From an uncultured delta proteobacterium (lineage in GTDB: Bacteria; Desulfobacterota; Binatia; UBA9968): 64,000 nucleotides of DNA. Of this stretch, positions 404-57,919 are shown piece after piece. Under the pieces are notes generated by a model. It saw only the letters and a program-made list of their open reading frames with translations, ran no database searches and was not told the DNA's origin. A program made the position numbers and the translations under genes. The first letter of the stretch is position 1. Each line of letters opens with the position of its first letter. The stretch covers positions 64,001 through 128,000 of the forward strand of contig CAVYTU010000007.1 of NCBI GenBank assembly GCA_963771465.1, read 5' to 3'.

Positions 404-1417
404 CTAAGCGTAGATCAACTCTGTCTCCGCGCTCACGTCAGGATAAAAGTCGACGAGTTGGCTTTGGCGAACGACCCCCATGATGCGCTCGACGTCGGCC
501 GCCGATAACTGTTGCGACCACTTGGTGGAAGCTTCCAACGGATCTTTGAATACGCTGTAATAGTGCTCGGATTGACGCGACGTGCTGCGTTGGACGAAGG
601 TTTCGACTTGATGGTGCCACGTGAGGCCGGTGAATTGGATCAACTCTTTCGCCTTGGCCACTGGATGAGCGCAAAGATCTTCGTAGCGCAGAACCGTACA
701 GCCCGCGATGCCTTCAATGCCGGCCAAGGCGATCTCATTATATAAAACCCAGCGCCAGGCCAGCCGTTCCACCGGATGCATCGCTTTGACGGCTTGATCG
801 CTGGGGTTTCTTTGTTTGTGCGGCGATTCTTCGAGGAGCATGCGCAGCACGGGAAAATCGTCGCTGCTTTTGGCAGTGGAGCTGAACTGCCCGCGCGCTT
901 CGCCGTTTAAAACCGAAGCGATATAGCCGCCGGGATGGCGCAGTATCAACACGGCCTTGGAGTCGGCAACTGCGCGGACGATCACGCCCAGCCGTCCAAG
1001 TGATTCTATCGACTTCCAAACCACATGGATGCCTCTGGCTTTCTCAAGGTCAGCAAATTCGGGGATCGGAATATCGGAAATAAAAGGCTCAGATACCTTG
1101 GTCGCCAGCACCGCAAAACGTCTGAGCAATAGGCCGGTGGAAGACAGGTAACTTTTAGGGAAGATCGGCAAAGTGCCGGCAGAGCGCGGGCTGTTGACGT
1201 TCGCGAGTCTGTCAACGAAGTGCGTGACGGTGGATCGATATTTGTGATAGTCCGCAACCGGCGCAATCAGCGGTAAACTCTTCAGCGCGCTACCGCTGTC
1301 GGGTTCGTGGCGATACAGCGTGTCCGGGTGGCTGTCGAAAATCTTACCGATCCAGGTGGTACCAGAACGGGGTTGTCCAAAGAGCAAGATGAGTGGTTGT
1401 TTCATAATGACAATCAT
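404..1417 (-). CDS. Sulfotransferase family protein
   Basis: PAPS-binding motif GQPRSGTTW, followed by HEP, LILRHP and RYEDL motifs. Confidence 0.85.
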   Translation of the reverse strand: MIVIMKQPLILLFGQPRSGTTWIGKIFDSHPDTLYRHEPDSGSALKSLPLIAPVADYHKYRSTVTHFVDRLANVNSPRSAGTLPIFPKSYLSSTGLLLRRFAVLATKVSEPFISDIPIPEFADLEKARGIHVVWKSIESLGRLGVIVRAVADSKAVLILRHPGGYIASVLNGEARGQFSSTAKSSDDFPVLRMLLEESPHKQRNPSDQAVKAMHPVERLAWRWVLYNEIALAGIEGIAGCTVLRYEDLCAHPVAKAKELIQFTGLTWHHQVETFVQRSTSRQSEHYYSVFKDPLEASTKWSQQLSAADVERIMGVVRQSQLVDFYPDVSAETELIYA

Positions 1418-39312: not shown

Positions 39313-40041
39313 CTATTTCTCCATGATGATGACCGAATAGCCGGCTTGGCTCACTTGGCGCGCCTGTTCTTCGGCGGCACTGCGGCTGGGAAAAGTACCC
39401 AGATGCACTCGGTAGTACGTCATGTCTTTCGATTGCAGCGGGCTGATCGCCACGTTGGTAAATGCTTTGGCGATGCGATCGCGCAGCTGTTGGGCATTTT
39501 CCAATTGAGCGAAGGAACCGAGTTGCAGCGTGTAGTCGAGGTTGGCGCGGATGGCGCTCAGCCGCACCGGGCTGTCGACAACGTCGATGCGCACGAGAGC
39601 CGTGCCTGGCCCGACCATATGGATCGACTGTGCCGCGGCGTAGGAAAGATCGATGATTCTATTCTTGGCAAATGGGCCGCGGTCATTAACCAGGACTTGG
39701 GCGGCGGCGCCGTTTTCCAAGTTCGTCACCATCACTTTAGTGCCCAGGGGTAGAGTTTGATGGGCCGCAGTCATTTCATCCTGGTTATAAATTTCGCCGC
39801 TCGCCGTGGCTTTGCCGTGAAAGCCCGGCCCGTACCAGGAGGCGATGCCGGTTTGGCTGACGCGGCTCTCCGGCAAGGTCGGTGCCGGCACTCTAGATAC
39901 GGGTACGGCGCAGCCGCTCAGAACCGCCAGAAACGCAAAGCCGATCGCGCCACTGCGGCGAAGTTTTCGGTAAGCGGCGATGGCAAAAAAGCTGTCTATG
40001 ATCGAGTGGTTCATCGAGACGCGAGTATAACCAAAAGCCAT
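39313..40041 (-). CDS. rlpA: Septal ring lytic transglycosylase RlpA (DPBB + SPOR)
   Basis: Lipobox VLSGC, GIASWYG..FHG..TASGE, TAAH.TLP, VNDRGPF..NRIIDLS, and SPOR domain LQLGSF. Confidence 0.93.
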   Translation of the reverse strand: MAFGYTRVSMNHSIIDSFFAIAAYRKLRRSGAIGFAFLAVLSGCAVPVSRVPAPTLPESRVSQTGIASWYGPGFHGKATASGEIYNQDEMTAAHQTLPLGTKVMVTNLENGAAAQVLVNDRGPFAKNRIIDLSYAAAQSIHMVGPGTALVRIDVVDSPVRLSAIRANLDYTLQLGSFAQLENAQQLRDRIAKAFTNVAISPLQSKDMTYYRVHLGTFPSRSAAEEQARQVSQAGYSVIIMEK

Positions 40042-40940: not shown

Positions 40941-41510
40941 TTGGCCGACGCTGGCAAAAAATCGCCGCCGCGAATCATCCTGGGAATCGATCCCGGCACC
41001 ATGGCGACCGGTTGGGGAGTGGTTCAAGTGGTTGGCAACGCGCTGCGCCACATGGGCCACGGCACCATCAATTCATCGAGCGCGGAATCTCAGGCGCGCC
41101 GCTTACACCGTATCTACAATGAACTTTCGAAAGTAGTCCGCGAATTCCGTCCGGATGGCGTCAGTCTCGAAAAGGTTTTCTTCGCTCTCAATGTGCAAAG
41201 CGCCTTGAAGCTCGGCCAGGCGCGCGGCATCGCGCTTCTGGCTGCCGCAGAGCAGGATGTCGAAGTGCACGAATATAGCGCCATGGAAATCAAGTCGGCC
41301 GTGGTGGGCTATGGTCACGCGACCAAACAGCAGGTGCAAATGATGATTGGATCCCTGTTGAAGGTTTCGGGACGGGTGCCGACGGATGCCGCCGACGCCT
41401 TGGCTGCGGCGATCTGCCATCTCAATCGGCAAACTTTTGAATCCCGTGTTGCCGCCGCCGCGGCGAAAAAGCCGACGCCATTTCGGCCCCGTGACACGAG
41501 CGTGCGCTAG
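40941..41510 (+). CDS. ruvC: Holliday junction resolvase
   Basis: ILGIDPG, EKVFF, LGQARG, VGYGHATK and DAADALA. Confidence 0.96.
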   Translation: MADAGKKSPPRIILGIDPGTMATGWGVVQVVGNALRHMGHGTINSSSAESQARRLHRIYNELSKVVREFRPDGVSLEKVFFALNVQSALKLGQARGIALLAAAEQDVEVHEYSAMEIKSAVVGYGHATKQQVQMMIGSLLKVSGRVPTDAADALAAAICHLNRQTFESRVAAAAAKKPTPFRPRDTSVR

Positions 41511-41672
41511 AGCTGGCCGAAGATATATAATAATTGAACTGGCGTGAATAGGCCGCAAAGGACGTAGAGCATTAAACCTAACTCCCTTCTTGGCGTCATG
41601 GTATCTTGGCGCGAGTAGTTCTTTCACTAGATTAAAATACTAAATCGTACTGCAGATGTTGTTGTACAGATC

Positions 41673-42269
41673 GTGATCGCACAAATTAGCGGCAAGCTCG
41701 CGCAAAAACAGCCCGGCGAAGTCGTCATCGACGTCGGCGGCGTCGGCTACCTGGTGTTTATTCCGCTCAACGTTTTTTACCGTTTGCCCGACATCGGTAC
41801 GCCGATGAGCCTGCAGATTCACACCCATGTGCGTGAGGACGCGCTGCAGTTGTTCGGCTTTCACGATGTCGCCGAGAAACAGGTGTTTTTGCTGCTCACC
41901 GGCGTGTCCGGCATCGGCCCAAAGCTGGCGCTCAATATCTTGTCCGGGATAGCCGCCGAAGATTTGGCGCGGGCGCTAAAAAATGGCGACCAGGTGCGCT
42001 TGGTGGCGATTCCCGGGGTCGGCAGGAAACTCGCCGAGCGCATGATTGTCGAATTGAAGGATAAGTTCGCCACACTGGCGCCGGCGAGTATCGACAGCAC
42101 GGTCAAGCCGGCGGCGTCATCGCAAAAGATGCAGGACGCGGTTTCCGCCTTGATCAATCTGGGATATAAAAAACCAGAAATCGAAATAACCGTCCGTGAA
42201 GTTCTCAAGAACGCCGAGCTGTCGCTGGAAGATGTTTTGCGCGAGACTTTGCGGCGGATGAGCCACTAG
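41673..42269 (+). CDS. ruvA: Holliday junction branch migration protein
   Basis: DVGGVGY, HVREDA..LFGF, VSGIGPKLA, IPGVGRK.AER and ALINLGY. Confidence 0.96.
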   Translation: MIAQISGKLAQKQPGEVVIDVGGVGYLVFIPLNVFYRLPDIGTPMSLQIHTHVREDALQLFGFHDVAEKQVFLLLTGVSGIGPKLALNILSGIAAEDLARALKNGDQVRLVAIPGVGRKLAERMIVELKDKFATLAPASIDSTVKPAASSQKMQDAVSALINLGYKKPEIEITVREVLKNAELSLEDVLRETLRRMSH

Positions 42270-42324
42270 CGCAGTGAGTTGGCGCTGCTTTACATTGCAG
42301 GATGCTGAAAGATGATTTTGACCT

Positions 42325-42394
42325 GTCACCCTGAACTAACTGAAGAGTCTCATGGAGTAGAAAAGGCGAGATTCTTTGTCTCGCTCAGAATGAC
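42325..42394. repeat. REP-like palindrome (GTCA.CCTGA...TCAGAATGAC type)
   Basis: Arms GTCACCCTGA / TCAGAATGAC with inner GAGTCT / AGATTC, between ruvA and ruvB. Confidence 0.6.
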
Positions 42395-42452
42395 GATCGA
42401 AGTCAGGAGATTTTTGACGTGCTCTATATAGTCGAAAGAGTGTAAACAGACC

Positions 42453-43478
42453 ATGTTGGACGGGCACCAAACCGACGAAGACTCAGGATTCGATTTAAGC
42501 TTGCGTCCGCGCGGCTTTGACGAATACGTCGGCCAAGACCAGGTCAAAGAAAACCTCAAAGTCGCCATCGCCGCGGCGCGGGCGCGCGGCGATGTGCTCG
42601 ATCATATTCTTTTTCACGGCCCGCCGGGGTTGGGCAAAACCTCCATCGCCTATATCATCGCGCGCGAAATGGGCGTCAATATCAAAGCCACTTCGGGGCC
42701 GATCATTGAGCGCGCCGGCGACTTGGCCGCGCTGCTGACCAATCTCGACGAAGGCGATGTGCTGTTCATCGACGAAATCCATCGCCTCAATCATGTCGTC
42801 GAAGAAGTGCTCTATCCGGCCATGGAGGACTATGAGATCGACATCATGGTCGGCCAGGGACCGGCGGCGAAGTCGATCAAGTTGCCGCTGAAAAAATTTA
42901 CTCTAATCGGCGCCACCACGCGCTCGGGCTTGCTCACTTCGCCGCTGCGCGATCGCTTTGGCCAGAGTTTCCGTTTGGATTTCTACGATGCGATTTCCTT
43001 AGCGCACATTCTCAAACGTTCGGCTGCGATCCTCGGCGTCAAGGAAGACCAAGACGGCATCGCCGAGATCGCTTGCCGTTCGCGTGGCACGCCGCGCATC
43101 GCCAATCGCTTGCTGCGCCGGGTGCGCGACTACGCCCAGGTCAAAAGCACTGGGACAATCACCAAGGCGGTGACCGAAGAAGCGCTGCTCATGTTGCAAG
43201 TTGACCGCATAGGTTTGGACAAGATGGATACGTTGCTGCTGTTAACTTTGATCGATAAGTTTGCCGGCGGTCCGGTGGGCGTCGAAACTTTGGCCGCAGC
43301 CATCGGCGAAGAGAAAGACACCATCGAAGATGTCTACGAGCCGTTTCTGATTCAAGCCGGTTTCATTCAGCGCACGCCGCGCGGGCGCATGGCGACCGTC
43401 TTGGCTTACGATCACTTCGGGCGCAAGCCAAGAGCCGCCCCAAGTGATCCGGCGAAAAAACAGCCGAGTCTGTTTTGA
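42453..43478 (+). CDS. ruvB: Holliday junction helicase
   Basis: [43 protein letters not shown] and RTPRGR. Confidence 0.98.
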
Positions 43479-43517: not shown

Positions 43518-43730
43518 ATGGCCGGCTTGGGTAAGATCTTAATTTATCTCGGTCTCCTGTTGATCGTCATTGGCATAATTCTCACTCTCGCCGGCAAGTT
43601 GCCGTGGCTCGGCCGTTTGCCGGGTGACATTGCAATTGAGCGCGACAACTTTTCTTTTTATTTTCCGATCGCGACTTCGATCCTCGTCAGCGTGATCATC
43701 TCGCTTGTCCTTTACTTCTTGAGAAGGTAA
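43518..43730 (+). CDS. DUF2905 small membrane protein
   Basis: LGRLPGDI...FYFPIATSIL.S signature between two TM helices. Confidence 0.88.
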   Translation: MAGLGKILIYLGLLLIVIGIILTLAGKLPWLGRLPGDIAIERDNFSFYFPIATSILVSVIISLVLYFLRR

Positions 43731-43733
43731 GCT

Positions 43734-46001
43734 TTGGCTAGTTTTCGACCCGCAAATCAGGCCCAGCCGATGGAACCCGCGAACCCCGCCAAAGCCGTCG
43801 AAGAGCTCCGCAAATACGAAGAAACCAAACGGCGCAAGCGGGAGGGCATCGTCATCCTGGTGACCTTCCTTTTGGTGGCCGCGCTGATCTTCTTCGAGGT
43901 CCAGCTACCGGACGTCTCATCGGAATATTCGCTCGGCAGCAATATCCTGTTTTTTCTACTCATCAACGTCAACATCATCCTGCTCGGGTTGCTGGCTTTC
44001 CTGGTCGTGCGCAACGTAGTCAAGCTGATCGTCGAGCGCAAACGGCGCATCCTCGGTTCATACTTGCAAGTCCGCTTGGTTTTGGCGTTCGTCGCGCTGT
44101 CATTGGTGCCGAGTGTGCTGCTGTTCGTGATCGCCGGCGGTTTGCTGACCCGCTCCTTCGACCGCTGGTTTGACGCCAAAGTCGAAAGCGCACTGCAAGG
44201 TTCCTTGGAAATCGGCCAGACCTATTATCAAAACTCCGCGAATAACGCGATCTTTTACGCCCGTCAGTTGAGCCGAGCGATCAGCGAAGAAGGGCTCTTC
44301 GAGCAAAAGCGCAGCGCGGAGCTGAAGTCCTTCGTGCAAAGTAAACAGAAGGAATACAATCTCGGTACCGTGGAGATCTTTTCGCCGCAGGGTCAGCCGT
44401 TCGTCGTCGCGTTCAACGACAAGGTGCCGACCGGCGTGACGATCAAGCCGGAGTCGGAGTTTCTCACCCGGGCGCTGCGCGGCCTCGAAGTCACAACCAC
44501 GCAGGCCTTCGGAGACGCCGACGTGATTCGCGGCGGAGCGCCAATCCATGCCAAGGATAAGCGCATTATCGGGGTGGTGGTGGTCGATTACTTCGTGCCG
44601 AAAAGTATCAGCAAACGAGCGGCGCAAATCTCCCAGTCCTATGAAGAGTACAAGTACCTGACGTTTCTCAAAGCGCCCGCGAAGAATAGCTATATTCTCA
44701 CTCTGCTCTTGATCACTTTGGTGTTGATCCTGGCGGCGACGTGGTGCGGTATCTATATTTCGCGCGGCATAACCGTGCCGATCCAGAAGCTCGCTGAGGG
44801 CACTCACGAAGTCGCCCAGGGCAATTGGGATTACCAAATCGAGTCGGGCGGTGACGATGAGATGGGCGTGCTGATGAATTCGTTCAATCACATGACCGGC
44901 GATCTGAAGCAAATCAAACTGGAGCTCGAGCGGCGCGGCAAAGTCGTCGAGATGCTGCTCGCCAATATTGCCGCGGGTGTGGTCTCGGTGGACCCGGCGG
45001 GCAAGGTCACGACTTGGAATAAGGCGGCGGAGCAGCTGTTAGGCGTCAAAGCGGCCGACGCGCTGGGAAAAAACTTCCAAGAGGTTTTTCGCGCTGACGC
45101 GTTGGCCGGGGTTCGCGAGATCGCCGACAACGTTCAGGGACACCAGAGCGTCGAGCGCGAAGTAAAAATTCCCATGCCGCAGCAGTTGCTGACGGTGGTG
45201 GCCAGCGCGGCGACCTTGCACGACGACGACGGGTCGAGTCTCGGCTTCATGATTTTTCTCGAGGATATTACGCAGATTCAAAAAGTGCAGCGCATGGAAG
45301 CTTGGCGCGAAGTGGCGCGGCGCATCGCTCATGAGATCAAAAATCCGTTGACGCCGATTCAATTATCCGCGGAGCGATTGCGCAAGCGCTACGCGGGTAT
45401 GCTGAAGGAGGACGGCGCGGTCTTGGACAAGTGCACGACGACGATCATCAAGCAGGTCGATGAACTTAAGAATCTGGTCAATGAATTTTCCCAGTTCGCG
45501 CGCCTGCCTGCCGCGCAGCTCATGTCGAACGACTTGAACGAAGTGGTCAATGAAGCGTTGTTTCTATTCAAAGAAGGCCACAACGGTATCGATTTTCAAT
45601 TTCGCCGCGGCGTGATTCCGGCCGTCGATCTCGATCGGGAGCAAATCAAGCGGGTGTTGATCAACTTGCTGGACAACGCCGTGGCGGCCGTTGACGGCGG
45701 CGGCGAAATTAGGTTGGCCACGGATTACGACCCGGCGCGGGCTATCGTCACCTTGGAAGTCGCCGACAACGGTTGCGGTTTGGCGCCGGAACTGGGCACG
45801 AAAATATTCGAGCCTTATTTTTCGACCAAACAAAATGGCACCGGGCTCGGGTTGACGATTGTGAGCCAGATTATTGAAGATCACCGCGGCTATATTCGCG
45901 CGCTGCCGAACCTGCCGCAGGGAACCCGTTTTTCTATCGAATTGCCCGTTGGAGACGACGCCGAAACGATGGAAATGTCGAAAAAGGTGCTACACTCCTA
46001 A
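43734..46001 (+). CDS. ntrY: NtrY-like sensor histidine kinase (TM-periplasmic-HAMP-PAS-HisKA-HATPase)
   Basis: AWREVARRIAHEIKNPLTPIQLSAERL H-box typical of NtrY, plus NLLDNA, DNGCG and GTGLGL. Start may be ATG 43770. Confidence 0.9.
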   Translation: MASFRPANQAQPMEPANPAKAVEELRKYEETKRRKREGIVILVTFLLVAALIFFEVQLPDVSSEYSLGSNILFFLLINVNIILLGLLAFLVVRNVVKLIVERKRRILGSYLQVRLVLAFVALSLVPSVLLFVIAGGLLTRSFDRWFDAKVESALQGSLEIGQTYYQNSANNAIFYARQLSRAISEEGLFEQKRSAELKSFVQSKQKEYNLGTVEIFSPQGQPFVVAFNDKVPTGVTIKPESEFLTRALRGLEVTTTQAFGDADVIRGGAPIHAKDKRIIGVVVVDYFVPKSISKRAAQISQSYEEYKYLTFLKAPAKNSYILTLLLITLVLILAATWCGIYISRGITVPIQKLAEGTHEVAQGNWDYQIESGGDDEMGVLMNSFNHMTGDLKQIKLELERRGKVVEMLLANIAAGVVSVDPAGKVTTWNKAAEQLLGVKAADALGKNFQEVFRADALAGVREIADNVQGHQSVEREVKIPMPQQLLTVVASAATLHDDDGSSLGFMIFLEDITQIQKVQRMEAWREVARRIAHEIKNPLTPIQLSAERLRKRYAGMLKEDGAVLDKCTTTIIKQVDELKNLVNEFSQFARLPAAQLMSNDLNEVVNEALFLFKEGHNGIDFQFRRGVIPAVDLDREQIKRVLINLLDNAVAAVDGGGEIRLATDYDPARAIVTLEVADNGCGLAPELGTKIFEPYFSTKQNGTGLGLTIVSQIIEDHRGYIRALPNLPQGTRFSIELPVGDDAETMEMSKKVLHS

Positions 46002-46018
46002 ATAGATGCGGAGGAAGG

Positions 46019-47323
46019 GTGCAAGAGCTGTTGCTGCAAAAGACCATATTGGTCGTCGATGACGAGGACGACGTGCGCGAGTCGGTGCGCGAAGTATTGA
46101 CCGACGAAGGTTATCGAGTCGTCGATACCGCCGACGGCACTCGGGTGCTCGAGATGATACGCGCGGAACGGCCGGAGTTGGTGCTCCTCGATATCTGGAT
46201 GCCGCAAGTCGACGGCATCGGCTTGCTCAAGGAGATCAAGAGTCAGGAGCCGGAAATCAACGTCGTCATGGTGTCCGGCCATGGCAATATTCATACGGCG
46301 GTGACGGCCACCAAATATGGCGCCTTCGATTTTATCGAAAAGCCGGTATCCCTGGAGGGACTTCTCACAACCGTCCAGCGCGCGTTGGGCGAGTCGCCCG
46401 GATTAGAAGCGCAGGAAAAGGCGGCCAAGGGAGCACGCAAGGCCAAGACGGCGAAGCCAACGAGTTCACGGCCGCAATCCCACAGCGCCGCGCAAACGAT
46501 CAAACAAAAAACCTTGAAAAAGAGCGTGGTGCTTTCCGGGCAGGGACTTCATTCCGGTGTTAAGACCGGACTGCTCCTCCATCCATTGCCGCCCGGTAGC
46601 GGCATACAATTCACCGGCATCTCGGCCGATGTCACTGTGCCAGCCCATTTAGACTATGTCGGTTCCACAGGTTACGCGACCACGCTGCGCTCGAAAGGCT
46701 TCGCCGTCGGCACTGTGGAACATCTGCTCGCGGTGCTGCACTGTTACGGCATCACCAATTTGCTCGTGAAGGTGCAGGGTGAAGTGCCGGTCATGGACGG
46801 CTCGGCGTTGGACTTTTGCCAGGCTATTGACGAGGCCGGTATCGAGGAGGAGGACGCCGAGCTGGCTGAAATCGTCATCGACAAGATCTATCAGTTCGAC
46901 GCCAAGGGCGGCGAATCGATCTCGATCAAGCCGGCTGACGAGTTTTCGGTTCACTATGTGCTGCGTTATCCCGCCCCGGTGGGCGAACAAGAATATACCT
47001 ACCATCATCGCGGCGCGGAGTCGTTTAGGAGTGAAATCGCACCGGCGCGGACGTTTGGCTTTTTGCGCGATATCGCTAAGCTGCAAAATATGGGACTGGC
47101 CAATGGCGGACGGCTCAGTAATTTCATTCTCATCGACGATGAAAAAATCGTCAATACCGAATTGCGCTTCCCCGACGAGTTCGCGCGCCATAAAATCCTC
47201 GATGTGCTCGGCGATTTTTATTTGCTTGGCCGGCCCATCCGCGGCGCCATCACCGCGCGTATGACCGGCCACTCGGATAATATCGCGCTGTTGCGGCAGA
47301 TCCGTGAAGGGATGAAACTTTAG
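46019..47323 (+). CDS. lpxC: Fusion of an NtrX-like receiver domain to UDP-3-O-acyl-GlcNAc deacetylase LpxC
   Basis: About the first 125 aa: VVDDE, LLDIWMP, VSGHG and FIEKP. After a K/A/S-rich linker: QKTLKK...GQGLHSG, TVEHLLA, EVPVMDGSA, APARTFGF, HKILD..GD and TGHSDN. Confidence 0.92.
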   Translation: MQELLLQKTILVVDDEDDVRESVREVLTDEGYRVVDTADGTRVLEMIRAERPELVLLDIWMPQVDGIGLLKEIKSQEPEINVVMVSGHGNIHTAVTATKYGAFDFIEKPVSLEGLLTTVQRALGESPGLEAQEKAAKGARKAKTAKPTSSRPQSHSAAQTIKQKTLKKSVVLSGQGLHSGVKTGLLLHPLPPGSGIQFTGISADVTVPAHLDYVGSTGYATTLRSKGFAVGTVEHLLAVLHCYGITNLLVKVQGEVPVMDGSALDFCQAIDEAGIEEEDAELAEIVIDKIYQFDAKGGESISIKPADEFSVHYVLRYPAPVGEQEYTYHHRGAESFRSEIAPARTFGFLRDIAKLQNMGLANGGRLSNFILIDDEKIVNTELRFPDEFARHKILDVLGDFYLLGRPIRGAITARMTGHSDNIALLRQIREGMKL

Positions 47324-47371
47324 TACGGCGCCGGCAAGCCAGGCGCGAAACCGTTGGCGAGAGTTATTGCC

Positions 47372-47821
47372 ATGGAAGATTCCGCTCAATACCAGAGACT
47401 CTTTACCATCAACGAGGCTAATGAACTGCTGCCGGTTCTCCGTCCCTTGGTTGAACAGATTCTCGATAATATTCGGCGGCTAAAAAGCGCGAGCGAAAAC
47501 GTCATCCGAAGGGAGCAGCTCGACCCGGAAGCGCCGGATTTGATGGCGCAGCTCACTCAAGACAGCGAGATTACCCGTCTGGTCGAGCAGGTGAAGCAGT
47601 GGGTCGAGACGATCAATGAACATGGCTGTCAGTGTAAAGGCGTGGAACAGGGGTTGATCGATTTCCCCTGTGTGTACGGCTCCGAAGTGGTTTTTCTCTG
47701 CTGGCAGCTTGGCGAACCGAACGTTAGTTTTTGGCATCGCATCGAAGACGGCTTCGCCGGCCGCCGGCCATTGCTCGACGGCGAAAGTTCAGAACCGGAG
47801 AGCGGTACGTCTTATCATTGA
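47372..47821 (+). CDS. DUF2203 family protein
   Basis: FT..EANELLP and K...GLIDFP....LCW.LGE...FWH...GFAGRRP. Start is either TTG 47354 or ATG 47372. Confidence 0.85.
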   Translation: MEDSAQYQRLFTINEANELLPVLRPLVEQILDNIRRLKSASENVIRREQLDPEAPDLMAQLTQDSEITRLVEQVKQWVETINEHGCQCKGVEQGLIDFPCVYGSEVVFLCWQLGEPNVSFWHRIEDGFAGRRPLLDGESSEPESGTSYH

Positions 47822-54115: not shown

Positions 54116-54271
54116 GGCAGATAAAATGACGGTTAACAAAAAGCTGGTGAATGTACAAGGCGTTCTGAGTGTCTCAGCGGTAATTCTTTAGCCCATCAAA
54201 ACGCCTGCTGCGGGCAACGAAAGTTGCGGATAAAGCATCATTTTTTCGCGCTTTGGAGGATGGCTATCAAC

Positions 54272-54299
54272 TTGACAATAGGAGGGAATTGTCTATATT
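54272..54299 (+). promoter_or_regulatory. Candidate sigma70 promoter of the yceD-rpmF-plsX-fab operon
   Basis: TTGACA-N16-TATATT. Confidence 0.55.
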
Positions 54300-54331
54300 C
54301 GATGAACACTGAACGGCCCGCATTAGCGCCG

Positions 54332-54868
54332 ATGAAAATCTCCATCGACGAGATTCCTCAAACACCGAAAGAGATCGATTTCTCCGAGAACGTTGAGGAA
54401 CTCAACAAGATATACAGCCGAGACAATAGCCCGGATTTCGGCTTTCCGCCATCGTTGGATGTGCATTTGGTCTATTATCGATCGGGCCCGGAGCTTTTTT
54501 TTAGCGGCAATTTTAGCGGTGCGTTCACGGGTCATTGCGGCCGCTGTCTGGAAGAGTTCCACTTTTCGCTCGATCAGAGATTCGATTTCGTGCTAACTCC
54601 CGATCCGAAACGATCGAGCCATGGGGCGGCGGAGTTACATCGCGACGAGCTCGGTTTAAGCTATTATTCTTCGGAAGAAGTTGATATGGCACCCTTGATC
54701 GCAGAGCAAGTGATATTGGCATTGCCAACCAGACCGCTGTGCTCGGAAAATTGCCGTGGCCTCTGCGGCCATTGTGGAGCGAACTTAAACAGTGAGAGTT
54801 GCAATTGCGCTGACGTTGACGGCGATCCGCGCATGGCGCTATTCCGCAGGCTCAAAGTCGGACAATAG
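54332..54868 (+). CDS. yceD: YceD/DUF177 family protein
   Basis: CGRCL and LPTRPLC.ENCRGLC..CG.NLN...C.C...DPR, positioned before rpmF. Start is 54302 or 54332. Confidence 0.92.
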   Translation: MKISIDEIPQTPKEIDFSENVEELNKIYSRDNSPDFGFPPSLDVHLVYYRSGPELFFSGNFSGAFTGHCGRCLEEFHFSLDQRFDFVLTPDPKRSSHGAAELHRDELGLSYYSSEEVDMAPLIAEQVILALPTRPLCSENCRGLCGHCGANLNSESCNCADVDGDPRMALFRRLKVGQ

Positions 54869-54926
54869 CGTGAAACGAATTTTGATCGGCTGATATATTA
54901 ATTGAAAGAAAGATAGGGTCATACTT

Positions 54927-55109
54927 ATGCCGGTACCCAAACGAAGAACTTCGAAGCGAGTGAAGAACCAGCGCCGTTCGCACGATCATCTAACCAAGCC
55001 GCAGTGGAGCACCTGCCCCAATTGTAGCGAAACCGTTTTGCCCCATCGGGCGTGCGCCAAGTGCGGCTTTTACCGCGGCCGCGCGGTCATCCCAACCGAA
55101 GAAAGTTAA
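54927..55109 (+). CDS. rpmF: 50S ribosomal protein L32 (zinc-ribbon form)
   Basis: MPVPKRRTSK and CPNC...PHRAC..CGFY.GR. Confidence 0.97.
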   Translation: MPVPKRRTSKRVKNQRRSHDHLTKPQWSTCPNCSETVLPHRACAKCGFYRGRAVIPTEES

Positions 55110-55123
55110 GTCTTCTACTTCCC

Positions 55124-56245
55124 ATGCCGAAAATCGCCATCGATGCGATGGGCGGAGACCACGCCCCAGGAGTCGTGATCGAGGGTGTATTGCTTGCGGC
55201 TCAAGGGCTTGGCGTCGAGCTCGTGCTGATCGGTCAGAATGAAGCCATCGAGCAGGAGCTCGCCAGGCACCCTCACGCGCCGAAATTTGACATTGTCGCC
55301 GCATCGCAAGTCGTGCCCATGCACGAGGCGCCGAGCGTCGCGTTACGCAAAAAGGACTCGTCGATGAAAGTCGGCTTCGAGATGATGAAGCGCGGCGAAG
55401 TCGACGCGGTGGTGAGCGCGGGCAACTCCGGCGCGATGATGGCGATCGGCATGTTCGTCATGGGCCGGCTTTCGCAAGTCGCCCGGCCCGCGATCCTCGT
55501 CGTCGTGCCGAATCTCGACAAGGGGACCGTTATCGTCGACGCCGGCGCCAACGTCGATTGCAAGCCGCTGCACCTGGTCCAATTCGGTCTCATGGGTTCG
55601 ATCTATGCCGAGCGAGTCTTGGGTGTTACCAACCCACGGGTCGGTGTGTTGAGCAACGGCGAGGAAGAAGGTAAAGGCACGGACTTGACCCGCGCTGCGA
55701 GCGAGCAGTTGGCCGCGGTGCCGGTCAATTACATCGGTTACGTCGAAGGGCGCGATATTTTCAACGGCAAGGTCGATGTGGTGGTTTGCGACGGTTTTAC
55801 CGGCAACGTTGCGCTCAAAACCATGGAAGGCGTGGCCAGTTTCGCCGGCGAAGTTTTGAAAGATGCTTTCAAGCAGAGCGTATCGAGTAAGTTGGGATAT
55901 TTGATGAGCCGTAACTCGCTCAAGCAAGCGTACCGCCGGCTGGATTACGCCGAGTACGGCGGCGCGCCGCTGATCGGTTTGGACGGCGTTGCGATCATCG
56001 CGCACGGCGGGTCAAATCCGCTGGCGATCAAAAACGCCATTCGTCAAGCGCGCGACGCGGTCGATCAGCAGATGAATCGCCATATCGCCGAGGCTTTGGC
56101 TGAACTGGATCGCATCGCAGGAGATCGTAAAGCGGGATTGCCGCAAAAACTCTGGCATCGGCTCAAGTCAAAGATCGAAACCATCGGCGAAAAGAGCGAT
56201 ACGCCGAGCGGCACGGAGGTACGGAGGCGGAATGGCGAGTCCTAA
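55124..56245 (+). CDS. plsX: Phosphate acyltransferase
   Basis: IAIDAMGGDHAP, SAGNSGA, DAGANVD, NGEEEGKG and CDGFTGNVALK. Confidence 0.96.
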   Translation: MPKIAIDAMGGDHAPGVVIEGVLLAAQGLGVELVLIGQNEAIEQELARHPHAPKFDIVAASQVVPMHEAPSVALRKKDSSMKVGFEMMKRGEVDAVVSAGNSGAMMAIGMFVMGRLSQVARPAILVVVPNLDKGTVIVDAGANVDCKPLHLVQFGLMGSIYAERVLGVTNPRVGVLSNGEEEGKGTDLTRAASEQLAAVPVNYIGYVEGRDIFNGKVDVVVCDGFTGNVALKTMEGVASFAGEVLKDAFKQSVSSKLGYLMSRNSLKQAYRRLDYAEYGGAPLIGLDGVAIIAHGGSNPLAIKNAIRQARDAVDQQMNRHIAEALAELDRIAGDRKAGLPQKLWHRLKSKIETIGEKSDTPSGTEVRRRNGES

Positions 56246-57170
56246 TATCGCATACGTCTTTCCCGGTCAGGGATCGCAATCCGTCGGCATGGGCAAGGAG
56301 TTTTGCACCCAGTTTTCAGTTGCCAAACAGGTATTCGCCGAAGCTGACGATGCCCTCGGTTTTTCACTGAGCCGGCTCTGTTTCGAAGGCCCTGAAGCGG
56401 ATCTCAAGCTTACGGAAAATACCCAGCCGGCGATTCTCACCGTGTCGATCGCGGCGTTGCGTGTGCTCCAAGCGGAAACTGCTTTGCGGCCAGCCTATGT
56501 CGCGGGTCACAGTCTCGGTGAATACAGCGCGTTGGTCGCCGTCGGCGCGTTGCGTTTCGGCGATGCAGTGCGAATAGTCGGCCAGCGCGGCCGCTTGATG
56601 CAGCAAGCGGTGCCTGCCGGAGTCGGCGCCATGGCGGTAATTCTCGGCTTGGAAATGGACGCGGTGCGCGCGCTCTGCGTCGACGCTAGTCAAGGCGAAG
56701 TGGTCGCGCCGGCGAATTACAACGGCGGCGGTCAAATCGTCATCGCCGGCACGAAAACTGCGGTCGCTCGGGCTATGGCACTGGCCCAGGAGCGCGGCGC
56801 CAAACGGGCGTTAGATCTGCCCGTAAGCGCGCCATTTCATTGCCAATTGATGCAGCCGGCAGCGGACGGCTTGAAGCAGGTCTTGAGTGAATTTATCATC
56901 CAACCTTTTTCCGTCGGCGTTGTCACCAACGTCGAAGCGGATGTCAATCAAGATGCCAACCGAGTGAAAGAGCTGTTGTCCGAGCAAGCGGTCAAGCCGG
57001 TGCGCTGGGAAGAATCGGTGCGAAAATTGTATCTTCTGGGTTGCGCGCGGGCCTTGGAGATTGGTCCAGGCAAAGTGTTAAAAGGTCTGATCAAGCGTAT
57101 CGCGCCGGACATGGCAGTCGACAATTTTGAAACGCCGCAAGACCTGCCGCGAATCGCCGCGGCCGCATGA
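56232..57170 (+). CDS. fabD: Malonyl-CoA:ACP transacylase
   Basis: FPGQGSQ, TQPA, GHSLGEY, VSAPFH and EIGPG. Confidence 0.97.
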   Translation: MASPNIAYVFPGQGSQSVGMGKEFCTQFSVAKQVFAEADDALGFSLSRLCFEGPEADLKLTENTQPAILTVSIAALRVLQAETALRPAYVAGHSLGEYSALVAVGALRFGDAVRIVGQRGRLMQQAVPAGVGAMAVILGLEMDAVRALCVDASQGEVVAPANYNGGGQIVIAGTKTAVARAMALAQERGAKRALDLPVSAPFHCQLMQPAADGLKQVLSEFIIQPFSVGVVTNVEADVNQDANRVKELLSEQAVKPVRWEESVRKLYLLGCARALEIGPGKVLKGLIKRIAPDMAVDNFETPQDLPRIAAAA

Positions 57171-57919
57171 GCTCGATGAATCTTCAGGGCCAAGTGGCGT
57201 TGGTCACCGGCGCCAGCCGTGGCATCGGCAGAGCGATCGCGTTGAGCCTCAGCCGAGCCGGTGCCCATGTGATTGTCAATTATCGCGGCAATCAGGCGGC
57301 GGCTGAAGAATCCCTGAGCGCGATAATTGCCCAAGGGGGAAAGGGCGAGCTGTGCCCTTTCGACGTCGCCGATGAGACGCAGATCGAAGCGGCGGTCAAA
57401 AATATCGTTGACCGACATCAGAAAATTGATATTCTCGTCAACAATGCCGGCGTAACCGCCGATGGTCTCTTGATGCGCATGAAACCGGCGGATTGGGAGC
57501 AAGTCATCGGCGTCAATTTGAAGGGCACGATTCTCTGTACCAAAGCGGTCTCGCGCATGATGATTCGCCAGCACGGCGGCCGGATTGTCAACCTGTCGTC
57601 AGTGGTGGGCCAGAGCGGCAATGTGGGGCAGTCGCTTTACGCGGCATCGAAAGCGGGAATCATTGGTTTCACCAAGTCGGTGGCGCGCGAAGTCGCTTCG
57701 CGCGGCGTGACCGTCAACGCGGTGGCGCCCGGATTCATCGACACCGACATGACCCACCGCTTGCCGGAAAAGTTGCGCGAGGAGTTCCGCCACGCCATTC
57801 CTCTCGGCCGTTTCGGCACTTGTGATGAAGTGGCTGACATGGTTTTGTTTCTAGTGGGGCCGGGGGCGGGCTATGTGACCGGACAGGTTTTCGGTATTAA
57901 TGGCGGGCTATACATGTGA
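57167..57919 (+). CDS. fabG: 3-oxoacyl-ACP reductase
   Basis: TGASRGIG, NNAG, YAASK and VAPGFI.TDMT. Confidence 0.96.
   Translation: MSSMNLQGQVALVTGASRGIGRAIALSLSRAGAHVIVNYRGNQAAAEESLSAIIAQGGKGELCPFDVADETQIEAAVKNIVDRHQKIDILVNNAGVTADGLLMRMKPADWEQVIGVNLKGTILCTKAVSRMMIRQHGGRIVNLSSVVGQSGNVGQSLYAASKAGIIGFTKSVAREVASRGVTVNAVAPGFIDTDMTHRLPEKLREEFRHAIPLGRFGTCDEVADMVLFLVGPGAGYVTGQVFGINGGLYM

Follow-up and report, generated by a model that had tools for sequence, protein, structure and literature searches.

A receiver domain fused to LpxC next to an NtrY-like kinase: a candidate two-component system with the committed enzyme of lipid A synthesis as its output

Introduction

Flux through lipid A synthesis is controlled at the LpxC step, and the enzyme has long been an antibiotic target. 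In E. coli, this committed enzyme is controlled post-translationally by the FtsH/LapB/YejM system, whose regulated degradation of LpxC depends on a C-terminal degron. A 2025 review (PMC12444477) rates the evidence on LpxC regulation outside E. coli as thin.

The NtrY/NtrX system, described in Brucella, Rhodobacter sphaeroides and Caulobacter, combines a kinase of the layout NtrY_N-HAMP-PAS-HisKA-HATPase_c with NtrX, a DNA-binding REC-AAA+-HTH regulator that has a regulon of dozens of genes and affects lpxC via transcription. In R. sphaeroides, lpxC mRNA rises 8.8-fold on loss of NtrYX (PMC7240162), and a connection of NtrYX with lpxC expression and the level of LPS is reported for this species (PMC7240162) and for C. 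crescentus (PMC12444477). In Desulfovibrio, lpxC is the only detected target of the DVU2931/Dde_3000 kinase and the DVU2934/Dde_3003 sigma54 regulator. DVU2934 of D. vulgaris binds upstream of lpxC only (PMC3333781), and lpxC is the only strongly raised gene in the D. alaskensis kinase mutant Dde_3000 (PMC4045070). By analogy, the Desulfovibrio system is a precedent for lpxC-dedicated regulation.

A receiver at the N-terminus that is joined by a flexible linker to an enzyme, as in the protein described below, is known from CheB, as well as from PleD, RpfG and RssB. In CheB, the receiver covers the active site, and phosphorylation lifts this block. LpxC is also found in another natural fusion, LpxC-FabZ (NCBIfam NF009667), whose partner is a second enzyme attached on the C-terminal side.

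Results

The window analysed here is a stretch of 64,000 nucleotides from a soil bacterium, and the features of the locus are collected in Table 1. The first-pass annotation reported a single ORF of 434 aa, located 17 bp past an NtrY-like kinase gene and carrying both receiver and LpxC motifs, and all of its statements on the sequence hold by ORF, Pfam and motif analysis. The kinase gene ends with TAA at 45999-46001, and the fused gene begins with GTG at 46019, a Met-aligned start that is common to close orthologues in the alignment. Pfam recognises Response_reg and LpxC in the product but neither an AAA+ nor an HTH domain; the absence of both, and of an internal Met before LpxC (residues 120-165), had been correctly noted. 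Moreover, orthologues share no conserved start at the REC/LpxC boundary, as judged by eye from the alignment.

Table 1. Features of the kinase and receiver-LpxC locus in the window
Feature	Position	Strand	Basis and remarks
ruvC, ruvA, ruvB	40941..43478	+	Translations; directly upstream
DUF2905 small membrane protein	43518..43730	+	Pfam E 5.6e-25; 3 bp 5' of kinase ORF
NtrY-like sensor histidine kinase, 755 aa from first TTG	43734..46001	+	Pfam domains
Kinase domains: NtrY_N 40-304, HAMP 342-392, PAS 408-512, HisKA 524-592, HATPase_c 634-739			Pfam; residue numbers
Shine-Dalgarno-like GGAGGA	46010..46015	+	By reading; just 5' of fused-gene GTG
Fused gene, REC + linker + LpxC	46019..47323	+	434 aa, uninterrupted frame
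REC domain, NtrX/NtrC type, residues 10-119	46046..46375	+	Pfam PF00072
Linker, residues 120-162	46376..46504	+	K/A/S-rich in window protein, predicted disordered
LpxC domain, residues 163-428, short C-terminus	46505..47302	+	PF03331 and TIGR00325
DUF2203 protein	47354..47821	+	Pfam E 8e-36; 30 bp 3' of fused gene

A misjoined assembly or a deletion that arose recently in this genome alone, either of which would make the fusion unique to this assembly, is refuted as its source. Both Pfam domains are present in 120/120 best database relatives, and the fetched loci include 73 short and 15 long uninterrupted fusions, the same architecture recurring in independent assemblies. Contigs from other runs cross the linker, a check that the first-pass annotation had proposed. 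A DNA contig from a separate study covers 45812-46718 with 2 differences. An RNA-library contig spans the kinase stop and the start of the receiver (45754-46101, 0 differences), although it may hold DNA and is no proof of a single transcript, and a second one covers the end of the receiver and the linker (46133-46490), with the same reservation that RNA libraries may contain DNA.

The ruvC-ruvA-ruvB genes are a conserved context outside the proposed two-component system, the gene order of close relatives being ruvC-ruvA-ruvB-DUF2905-kinase-REC_LpxC-DUF2203-queG. The DUF2905 gene is found in most close loci and also precedes a free lpxC (locus L113), while synteny places DUF2203 as a neighbour in close relatives only.

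The kinase has the same domain layout as NtrY. Its NtrY_N domain scores 31.5 bits against a cut-off of 23.2, the other four domains also lie above their cut-offs, and HisKA contains the H-box AHEIKNPLTPI. Judged by eye from the translation, hydrophobic segments flank an extracytoplasmic region some 180 aa long; translation could in fact begin slightly downstream of the first TTG. The protein is named NtrY-like because none of the NCBIfam equivalogs was passed, the best being LIC_11548 (271.8 bits vs 750). It is the only NtrY_N match of the genome, in which no protein reaches the NtrX cut-off of 600 bits (best 397.5).

The receiver is recognised by Pfam PF00072 (110.1 bits, cut-off 30.2, E 8.2e-32) and contains D14, D15 and E16 in VVDDE, D58 in LLDIWMP, S86 in VSGHG and K108 in EKP. 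We take the roles of the acidic pocket, the phospho-acceptor D58, the switch Ser and the Lys to be those assigned from CheY/NtrC work. These residues, together with P109, are invariant in an alignment of 40 diverse fusions sharing 39-82% identity with the window protein, and F105 is kept in at least 90% of them. The best NCBIfam match of the receiver is NtrX (NF051870, 143.4 bits vs a cut-off of 600, covering the N-terminal part of the profile only), and CheB families and RssB are also among its matches. Its best solved relatives are 4d6x (108 bits) and 5m7n (104 bits), both of which we take to be Brucella NtrX, with 1zit and 1ny5 also close. By these profile scores, the fused protein is an NtrX derivative rather than a member of the NtrX family. 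It differs from NtrX in that AAA+ and HTH are gone and the receiver is covalently joined to an enzyme. Similarly, whereas control in Desulfovibrio is transcriptional via sigma54, the window protein has no DNA-binding or sigma54-contact part. In comparison with CheB-type proteins, whose outputs are signalling enzymes, the output here is a biosynthetic enzyme of an essential pathway, and homology is limited to the receiver.

The LpxC domain matches PF03331 over profile positions 1-266 of 268 (274.4 bits, cut-off 27, E 1.3e-81) and passes the NCBIfam equivalog TIGR00325 (246.1 bits, cut-off 187.25). Its score against the LpxC-FabZ family is 209.5 bits, with a cut-off of 465, and, in contrast to FabZ, its partner is a signalling domain attached N-terminally. 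The motif residues are E234 and H235 in TVEH, H391, K392 and D395 in HKILD, and H418 in TGH, with T345-F346 and D399 also placed in the domain; the zinc and catalytic residues presumably map to E. coli E78, H79, H238, D242 and H265. In Foldseek comparisons, the AF2 model fits Aquifex aeolicus LpxC with a TM of 0.95-0.96 and an rmsd of 1.4-1.5 A, while P. aeruginosa LpxC is 39% identical. Whether this is the only lpxC of the genome was a question raised at first pass: the fused gene is the sole LpxC match of the genome, whose completeness is rated at 99.4%, and it is likewise the lone LpxC in 5/5 other fused genomes tested. Because LpxC is single, LpxB and LpxK are present and the fold matches solved LpxC, the fused protein must, on this genomic evidence, be the working LpxC of the cell. 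E234, H235, H391, K392, D395, D399 and H418 are invariant in the 40 fusions, and the invariance of both pocket and catalytic residues indicates that the REC and LpxC halves are both under purifying selection.

Of 401 genomes sampled from the phylum of the window organism, at least 102 contain the fused gene. Its short form is found in 19 family codes and its long form in 8, and 14/14 genomes from the organism's class have the fusion. In the L073 phylum, open frames of 674-962 aa surround LpxC in 27 of the 29 genomes with LpxC, and 6/6 further genomes checked contain in-frame fusions; in the L043 phylum, open frames of 474-482 aa are present in 5 of 6 genomes. REC and LpxC also occur together in 17 of the 30 nearest Atlas clusters. 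As far as these sequences can tell, the fusion, seen across three GTDB phyla, is old and retained. Its history is not purely vertical, since family codes f39, f42, f58 and f76 contain fused as well as free lpxC. The expected tie of this widespread architecture to ntrY is borne out among loci with enough upstream DNA, in which an NtrY-like kinase adjoins the fused gene in 48/64 short-form and 12/14 long-form cases. The pairing is not universal, as no such kinase is adjacent in the other 16/64 and 2/14 loci.

Origin of the fused receiver

Sister lineages possess long REC-AAA+-HTH-LpxC fusions, roughly 720 aa in length, whose ATPase has decayed: Walker A is found in 15/15, GAFTGA in 0/15 and the Walker B Asp-Glu in 0/15. 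In an analysis of LpxC domains from 39 short fusions, 15 long fusions and 20 free proteins, the fused ones form one clade, and the separating branch has an SH-aLRT of 99. REC and LpxC distances correlate (r 0.72), a value reached by 0/999 permutations.

Relatives with a free lpxC contain clusters of the order lpxC-DUF4390-kinase-sigma54 regulator. An NtrY-like kinase lies within about 2 kb of lpxC in 11/20 free-lpxC loci; DUF4390 is located between free lpxC and the kinase in 3/3 loci checked, and an intact REC-Sigma54_activat-HTH_8 regulator follows the kinase in 4/4 checked. The window receiver is 53% identical to that of one such free regulator (L122), and it is the best match of its genome when the receiver of a long fusion (L046) is used as query (105.6 vs 76.6 bits). 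The Desulfovibrio system resembles these clusters in its described function.

We infer from these sequences that the window receiver is a remnant of an NtrX/sigma54-type regulator, which is still whole in related lineages, either separate or fused. Given the long fusions, the free-lpxC clusters and the single fused clade, it appears that an lpxC-dedicated regulator was joined to its target and subsequently cut back to its receiver. Such a history would begin with a kinase and a sigma54 regulator dedicated to lpxC, the regulator becoming fused to its target gene; after fusion, it would have lost ATPase activity and sigma54 contact, and later trimming would have left the receiver alone. A more far-reaching version, in which the regulator collapsed onto its target by three steps that are all extant and an envelope-sensing NtrY-type kinase now sets lipid A flux within seconds through phosphorylation of LpxC's receiver, is tentative and somewhat doubtful.

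The decay of AAA+ and HTH modules in long forms after fusion would also suit a receiver that is the leftover of a fusion accident, at most a phosphate sink or folding partner with no regulatory effect, and so would the short-form loci in which an adjacent kinase is missing. A leftover should decay as AAA+ did, yet all residues of phospho-chemistry stay unchanged in 40 sequences with identities as low as 39% and in three GTDB phyla, and the best match spans both domains in every genome of the class. This explanation is very improbable.

Proposed control of LpxC

The kinase and REC-LpxC probably constitute a two-component system in which the committed lipid A enzyme is the output and phosphorylation alters flux. 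The first-pass suggestion that LPS flux may be tuned by phosphorylation of the receiver on LpxC, in response to a putative periplasmic signal, is supported by the results on distribution, kinase linkage, copy number and junction. Since neither the phospho-acceptor pocket nor the catalytic residues vary among the 40 fusions, phospho-control of LpxC is the best reading of the sequences, and we infer its sign and mechanism as follows. The membrane kinase would sense an envelope or redox cue via its extracytoplasmic and PAS modules, autophosphorylate and hand the phosphate to D58. The switch residues S86, F105 and K108 would then shift, changing how the receiver is seated on the LpxC domain or pairs through it. 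The altered contact between receiver and LpxC would shift lipid A flux, with no need for new transcription or proteolysis.

A CheB-like form of this control is preferred, in which the unphosphorylated receiver would be docked and restrain LpxC until phosphorylation frees it, although for the sign this is only slightly better than an even guess. Published NtrYX-type effects on lpxC differ in sign: the Desulfovibrio regulator is a predicted activator held down by the kinase, while NtrYX of alphaproteobacteria is an lpxC repressor. Structure models hint at docking. AF2 gives the window protein a mean pLDDT of 86.9 and a pTM of 0.83, with pLDDT below 50 at residues 127-155, and a 47%-identical orthologue a pTM of 0.87. 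Since the pTM expected from the larger domain alone was estimated at about 0.63-0.66 of length, these values hint, by pTM alone, that REC and LpxC are confidently docked.

The same models bear on a different mode of action, in which phosphorylation would make receivers dimerise or would bring the enzyme to the kinase and membrane, changing the site or partners of LpxC and not its intrinsic catalysis. NtrC/NtrX-type receivers work through dimer changes, and the closest solved relatives of this receiver (4d6x, 5m7n, 1zit, 1ny5) are of that type. Furthermore, by eye, short-form linkers of the L043 group, L086 and L097 open with a heptad-like helix, LEHRRLxxENRxL, resembling the receiver-AAA+ linker of the free regulator L122. 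Neither sequence nor charge of the linker is conserved over the family in alignments, and the gap between REC and LpxC matches ranges from 23 to 64 aa among short forms; such a flexible linker would suit a tether, and it fits a plain tether equally well as a gated switch. On the other hand, the high pTM of both monomer models hints at intramolecular contact, and solved LpxC enzymes are monomers. Dimerisation or recruitment is credible but unlikely.

Alternatively, the receiver could set the amount of LpxC, phosphorylation showing or hiding a degradation signal so that the fusion replaces FtsH/LapB-type proteolysis. The E. coli LpxC degron is the C-terminal tail, which is missing here, as the protein ends 6 residues past the LpxC Pfam domain; proteolysis-steering receivers are known, and one of them, RssB, is among the NCBIfam matches of this receiver. 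Proteolysis controls LpxC in E. coli, and for some alphaproteobacteria Lon is considered a candidate protease (PMC12444477). However, the sequence indicates no degron or adaptor, and compared with the E. coli enzyme, the window LpxC has a short C-terminus together with its own signalling domain. A Zn_ribbon_LapB search matched 2 places in the genome, though in a control it also matched 10/14 genomes, Gram-positives included, so that these matches carry no information. Control of LpxC amount is rated improbable, and phosphorylation acting on the enzyme through its receiver is retained as the preferred reading.

Discussion

No description of a REC-LpxC fusion was found in full-text literature searches, in agreement with the earlier remark that no characterised example is known, and a word search of the available text of the 2025 review PMC12444477 returned no occurrence of 'receiver', 'fused' or 'fusion'. 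The long REC-AAA+-HTH-LpxC fusions, the free lpxC-DUF4390-kinase-sigma54 clusters and the single clade of fused domains are new here.

Until now, NtrY had been connected with LPS through indirect effects on transcription in alphaproteobacteria and through the dedicated regulator known from Desulfovibrio. The fusion is a Rosetta-stone link that supports a deep functional tie of NtrY-type kinases to LPS synthesis. Its architecture suggests direct signal control of outer-membrane synthesis, and the fused receiver offers a directly testable hypothesis of phosphorylation-dependent LpxC activity.

The series from free regulator to whole fusion to trimmed fusion would be one of the rare cases in which nature has preserved the stages of a change from transcriptional to post-translational control. 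If the collapse of the regulator onto its target is true, LpxC control unlike the described modes of proteolysis, transcription and inhibitor proteins would be normal in whole soil and marine phyla.

Architecture of the fused gene and its locus

The window protein is a real, conserved response regulator with LpxC as its output. Its residues 10-119 form a receiver (Pfam, E 8.2e-32) and residues 163-428 a full LpxC domain (Pfam, E 1.3e-81, spanning positions 1-266 of the 268 in the profile), and no further Pfam domain was found in it. In NCBIfam, the protein passes the lpxC equivalog (246.1 bits; cut-off 187.25), and its best receiver match there is NtrX, with 143 bits well short of the cut-off of 600. 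The kinase encoded immediately upstream carries NtrY_N, HAMP, PAS, HisKA and HATPase_c domains (Pfam). It is the only NtrY_N kinase of the window genome, in which no NtrX scores above the NCBIfam cut-off. The first-pass annotation had described an NtrY-like kinase followed by a receiver-LpxC fusion, and this observation was confirmed in full, with all of its quoted motifs present in the protein.

The order of genes from yebC to queG around the fused gene is kept in close relatives of the window, and no other lipid A genes lie within 30-60 kb of the window. Several neighbouring genes were recorded along with the locus (see the table). Among them, the 377-aa frame beyond queG may encode an outer-membrane protein, judging from a C-terminal aromatic residue of the outer-membrane beta-barrel kind.

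Coordinates of the features discussed (positions in the window unless a fetched locus, L, or a searched genome, G, is named)
Feature	Position	Strand	Remark
yebC, ruvC, ruvA, ruvB, DUF2905, kinase, REC-LpxC, DUF2203, queG		one strand	from ruvB on, genes 3-57 bp apart
ORF, 457 aa	37942-39312	-	no Pfam match at E 1e-5
RlpA-like lytic transglycosylase (DPBB_1 + SPOR)	39316-40041	-	upstream of yebC-ruvCAB
NtrY-like kinase ORF, 755 aa	43734..46001	+	ends with TAA
GGAGGA	46010-46015	+	before GTG start of fused gene
REC-LpxC ORF, 434 aa	GTG 46019, end 47323	+	uninterrupted frame, 17 bases past kinase stop
ORF, 377 aa	49371-50504	+	300 bp past queG; no Pfam match; C-terminus ...LLQWKLAGF
ORF, 154 aa	51751-52212	+	no Pfam match at E 1e-5
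yceD-plsX-fabD-fabG fatty-acid/phospholipid cluster	54224-57916	+	7 kb downstream
Free-lpxC cluster	L113:4029-7813		directly after ruvCAB
Free-lpxC cluster	L115:94-3882		directly after ruvCAB
Free-lpxC cluster	L122:321-1682		
Interrupted fusion	L060:4642-6825		stop within receiver
Interrupted fusion	G439:C4:92763-93561		LpxC split
Interrupted fusion	G197:C6:235991-237280		one TAA

A genuine gene and the sole LpxC of its genome

With 6.9 Mb in 19 contigs and a completeness rating of 99.4%, the window genome contains LpxB and LpxK and a single LpxC match, namely the fused gene. The fused gene is likewise the only LpxC in all five other fused genomes tested, one of which (G405) is unpublished. 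Both Pfam domains occur in each of the 120 best relatives listed from the protein collection (76-98% identical), and the fetched loci L001-L100 include 73 short (receiver-linker-LpxC) and 15 long (receiver-AAA+-HTH-LpxC) uninterrupted fusions. At the junction, a DNA contig from another study covers 45812-46718 with 2 differences. A contig from the RNA libraries (45754-46101) crosses the kinase stop and the start of the receiver with 0 differences, and a second one (46133-46490) covers the receiver end and the linker; both indicate presence and are not proof of a single transcript. Coverage of the stretch by the RNA-library runs (X16 and X17) is partial, and its gaps carry no meaning. Taken together, the two-domain relatives, the uninterrupted fusions and the bridging contigs rule out a misassembly as well as a deletion private to this genome.

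Production of a separate LpxC from an internal start was also considered and seems unlikely from the sequence. As the first-pass annotation had stated, the translation has no internal Met in the stretch that separates the receiver from LpxC (residues 120-165). By eye, no Shine-Dalgarno-like motif was seen before TTG or GTG codons at the LpxC start, and no internal start is conserved there among orthologues.

A stop or a shift of frame interrupts four fusions among loci L001-L100, three of the long type (L060, L064, L067) and one of the short type (L076), with frame breaks in L064, L067 and L076. These, like the G439 and G197 copies, may reflect errors of sequencing or genes in decay.

Distribution of fused lpxC

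The fusion is not unique to the window assembly, a possibility that the first-pass annotation had raised. The survey comprised 401 genomes evenly drawn from the GTDB phylum of the window, with the best 150 listed places examined. A match across both domains was obtained in 62 genomes. Ten more have the LpxC match within open frames of 461-497 aa, and the four of these that were fetched are all fusions with 63-64-aa linkers; in another 30 the match lies within frames of 554-837 aa, and both of those fetched are long fusions. The fused gene is thus present in at least 102 of the 401 genomes. One genome (G304) is ambiguous, with an open frame of 277, and the best E-values of the remaining 298 are 5.8e-65 or weaker, within the range of free (unfused) LpxC. 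Fused lpxC is held by 19 family codes in the short form and by 8 in the long form, and it occurs in all 14 genomes of the window's class. Fused and free lpxC are both present in family codes f39, f42, f58 and f76, which suggests transfer, replacement or repeated loss and not purely vertical descent.

The fusion also extends to other phyla. In the phylum of L073, a locus titled Nitrospinota, LpxC was found in 29 of 33 genomes, in 27 of these 29 inside open frames of 674-962 aa; a receiver lies in frame 265-311 aa upstream of LpxC in L073 and in all six further genomes fetched. The phylum of L043 has open frames of 474-482 aa in five of six genomes and a split gene in one, and both loci fetched are short fusions. 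Among the 30 nearest clusters in the ESM Atlas, 17 are of the Response_reg+LpxC type, the first three having 128, 500 and 165 members.

Sixteen short-form loci (L084, L088-L097 and the L043 group) have no adjoining NtrY-like kinase. Genes for radical SAM, CbbQ-type AAA, formate-THF ligase and glyoxalase proteins are among those found beside them. Apparent kinase-receiver-LpxC triple fusions in three genomes (G076, G110, G143; frames of 1007-1423 aa) were dismissed as chance open frames because the kinase lies in a different frame, as checked for L081.

Long forms, free-lpxC relatives and the origin of the fusion

In the short form, to which the window protein belongs, a linker of 23-64 aa (measured as the gap between the two domain matches) joins the receiver to LpxC. 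The long form is a single frame of 677-746 aa in which the receiver is followed by a Sigma54_activat AAA+ domain, an AAA lid, in most cases an HTH-like block, and finally LpxC. All 15 long forms keep Walker A and lack the GAFTGA loop, and in all 15 the Asp-Glu of Walker B, judged from the aligned motif with free regulators alongside, is replaced by DS, AS, YS, EN and others. By eye, the HTH-like block is gone in L073 and partly gone in L100. The loss of GAFTGA and of the Walker B Asp-Glu, together with the losses of the HTH-like block, therefore indicates that the AAA+ module of the long forms is decaying.

Free lpxC was sampled at 20 fetched loci from the same phylum as the window. An NtrY-like kinase lies within about 2 kb of lpxC in 11 of them. 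The gene after the kinase encodes a 453-460-aa REC-Sigma54_activat-AAA_lid regulator at all four loci checked; HTH_8 is detected in three of these regulators, Walker B is intact (FLDE) in all four, and three have GAFTGA or GSFTGA. An lpxC-DUF4390-kinase-intact sigma54 regulator cluster was observed among these relatives (L101-L124). A DUF4390 gene stands between lpxC and the kinase at all three loci checked and is missing from the window's locus; its product may serve the kinase as an accessory protein.

The receiver of the window protein is 53% identical to that of the free regulator of L122, and with a long-fusion receiver as query it is the top match in the window genome (105.6 bits; next, 76.6). 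LpxC domains from 39 short fusions, 15 long fusions and 20 free genes were used for a tree, built by an IQ-TREE quick search with SH-aLRT only; the window's 34 close, near-identical relatives were omitted. A branch with SH-aLRT support of 99 separates all fused LpxC domains from the free ones. Pairwise distances of receivers and LpxC domains are correlated (r 0.72; 0 of 999 permutations as high). Both results fit a single fusion event, after which the two parts would have been inherited together. Short and long forms are intermixed, with 5 and 4 changes on the best tree, of which the starred branches force only one.

We infer from the sequences that the long form preceded the short one, on three grounds: a receiver of the NtrX/NtrC type, the existence of intermediates whose modules have decayed, and the resemblance of certain short-form linkers to the post-receiver helix of the L122 regulator. 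These linkers (L043, L044, L049-L051, L086 and L097), compared by eye, start with the heptad-like LEHRRLxxENRxL (compare L122 residues about 116-135). The helix is similar to the linker between receiver and AAA+ in the free sigma54 regulator, and it may have been left behind when the module was deleted. The window gene would be the trimmed end of a family of NtrX-type regulator-LpxC fusions.

Conservation, predicted structure and possible mechanism

Conservation was read from 40 short fusions that share 39-82% identity with the window protein. Invariant positions include, in the receiver, D14, D15, E16, D58, W60, S86, K108 and P109 and, in the LpxC part, E234, H235, H391, K392, D395, D399 and H418; F105, T345 and F346 are retained by 90% or more of the sequences. 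The roles of these residues are those known from work on CheY/NtrC and E. coli LpxC. No conservation of the linker, in sequence or charge, was found in this set.

The AF2 model of the window protein has a mean pLDDT of 86.9, with the linker (127-155) below 50, and its LpxC part fits the A. aeolicus enzyme with a TM of 0.95-0.96. Of the solved chains listed at E up to 1e-10, none matches both domains. The window protein's model has a pTM of 0.83 and that of an orthologue (47% identical, 24-aa linker) one of 0.87; a single rigid domain alone would give roughly 0.63-0.66 by our own estimate. As the values exceed this estimate, the models appear to dock the receiver on LpxC, and in both of them the receiver seems to be placed confidently. 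An uncontrolled two-chain prediction of LpxC 158-434 with receiver 1-126, made from 40-row alignments, gave scores of 0.02 and 0.01 (mark, 0.32), which speak neither for nor against docking.

In the proposed mechanism, the kinase would detect a cue via its extracytoplasmic stretch of ~180 aa, its PAS domain, or both, and would phosphorylate D58. The receiver switch would then alter either how the receiver touches LpxC or how it pairs with a second receiver, and the output of LpxC would shift as a result. In the favoured, CheB-like form, a docked receiver would restrain LpxC until phosphorylation releases it. Action of the receiver through dimerisation or recruitment is a live rival, and so is control of LpxC stability. 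For the LapB circuit, Zn_ribbon_LapB (PF18073) was tried as a marker and matched two places in the window genome; these matches are uninformative, because the control also matches 10 of 14 genomes, Gram-positives included.

Relation to known lpxC regulation

The related systems act on transcription. According to one report, the regulator of D. alaskensis is a sigma54 activator of lpxC that the kinase restrains in the growth medium used (PMC4045070). Another gives lpxC as the single target of DVU2934 and notes that lpxC of S. fumaroxidans adjoins the orthologous operon (PMC3333781). In R. sphaeroides without NtrYX, lpxC mRNA rises 8.8-fold and LPS increases, and no NtrX site is reported at lpxC (PMC7240162). 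A 2025 review of lipid A regulation treats NtrYX as a transcriptional input, and the words 'receiver', 'fused' and 'fusion' do not occur in it (PMC12444477).

No description of a receiver-LpxC or NtrX-LpxC fusion was found in the main text of openly available papers, and a response regulator with LpxC as output is apparently unstudied. The protein is of the same kind as known receiver-enzyme response regulators, but the variant is new. It is of high interest, as it opens the control of LpxC to direct test.
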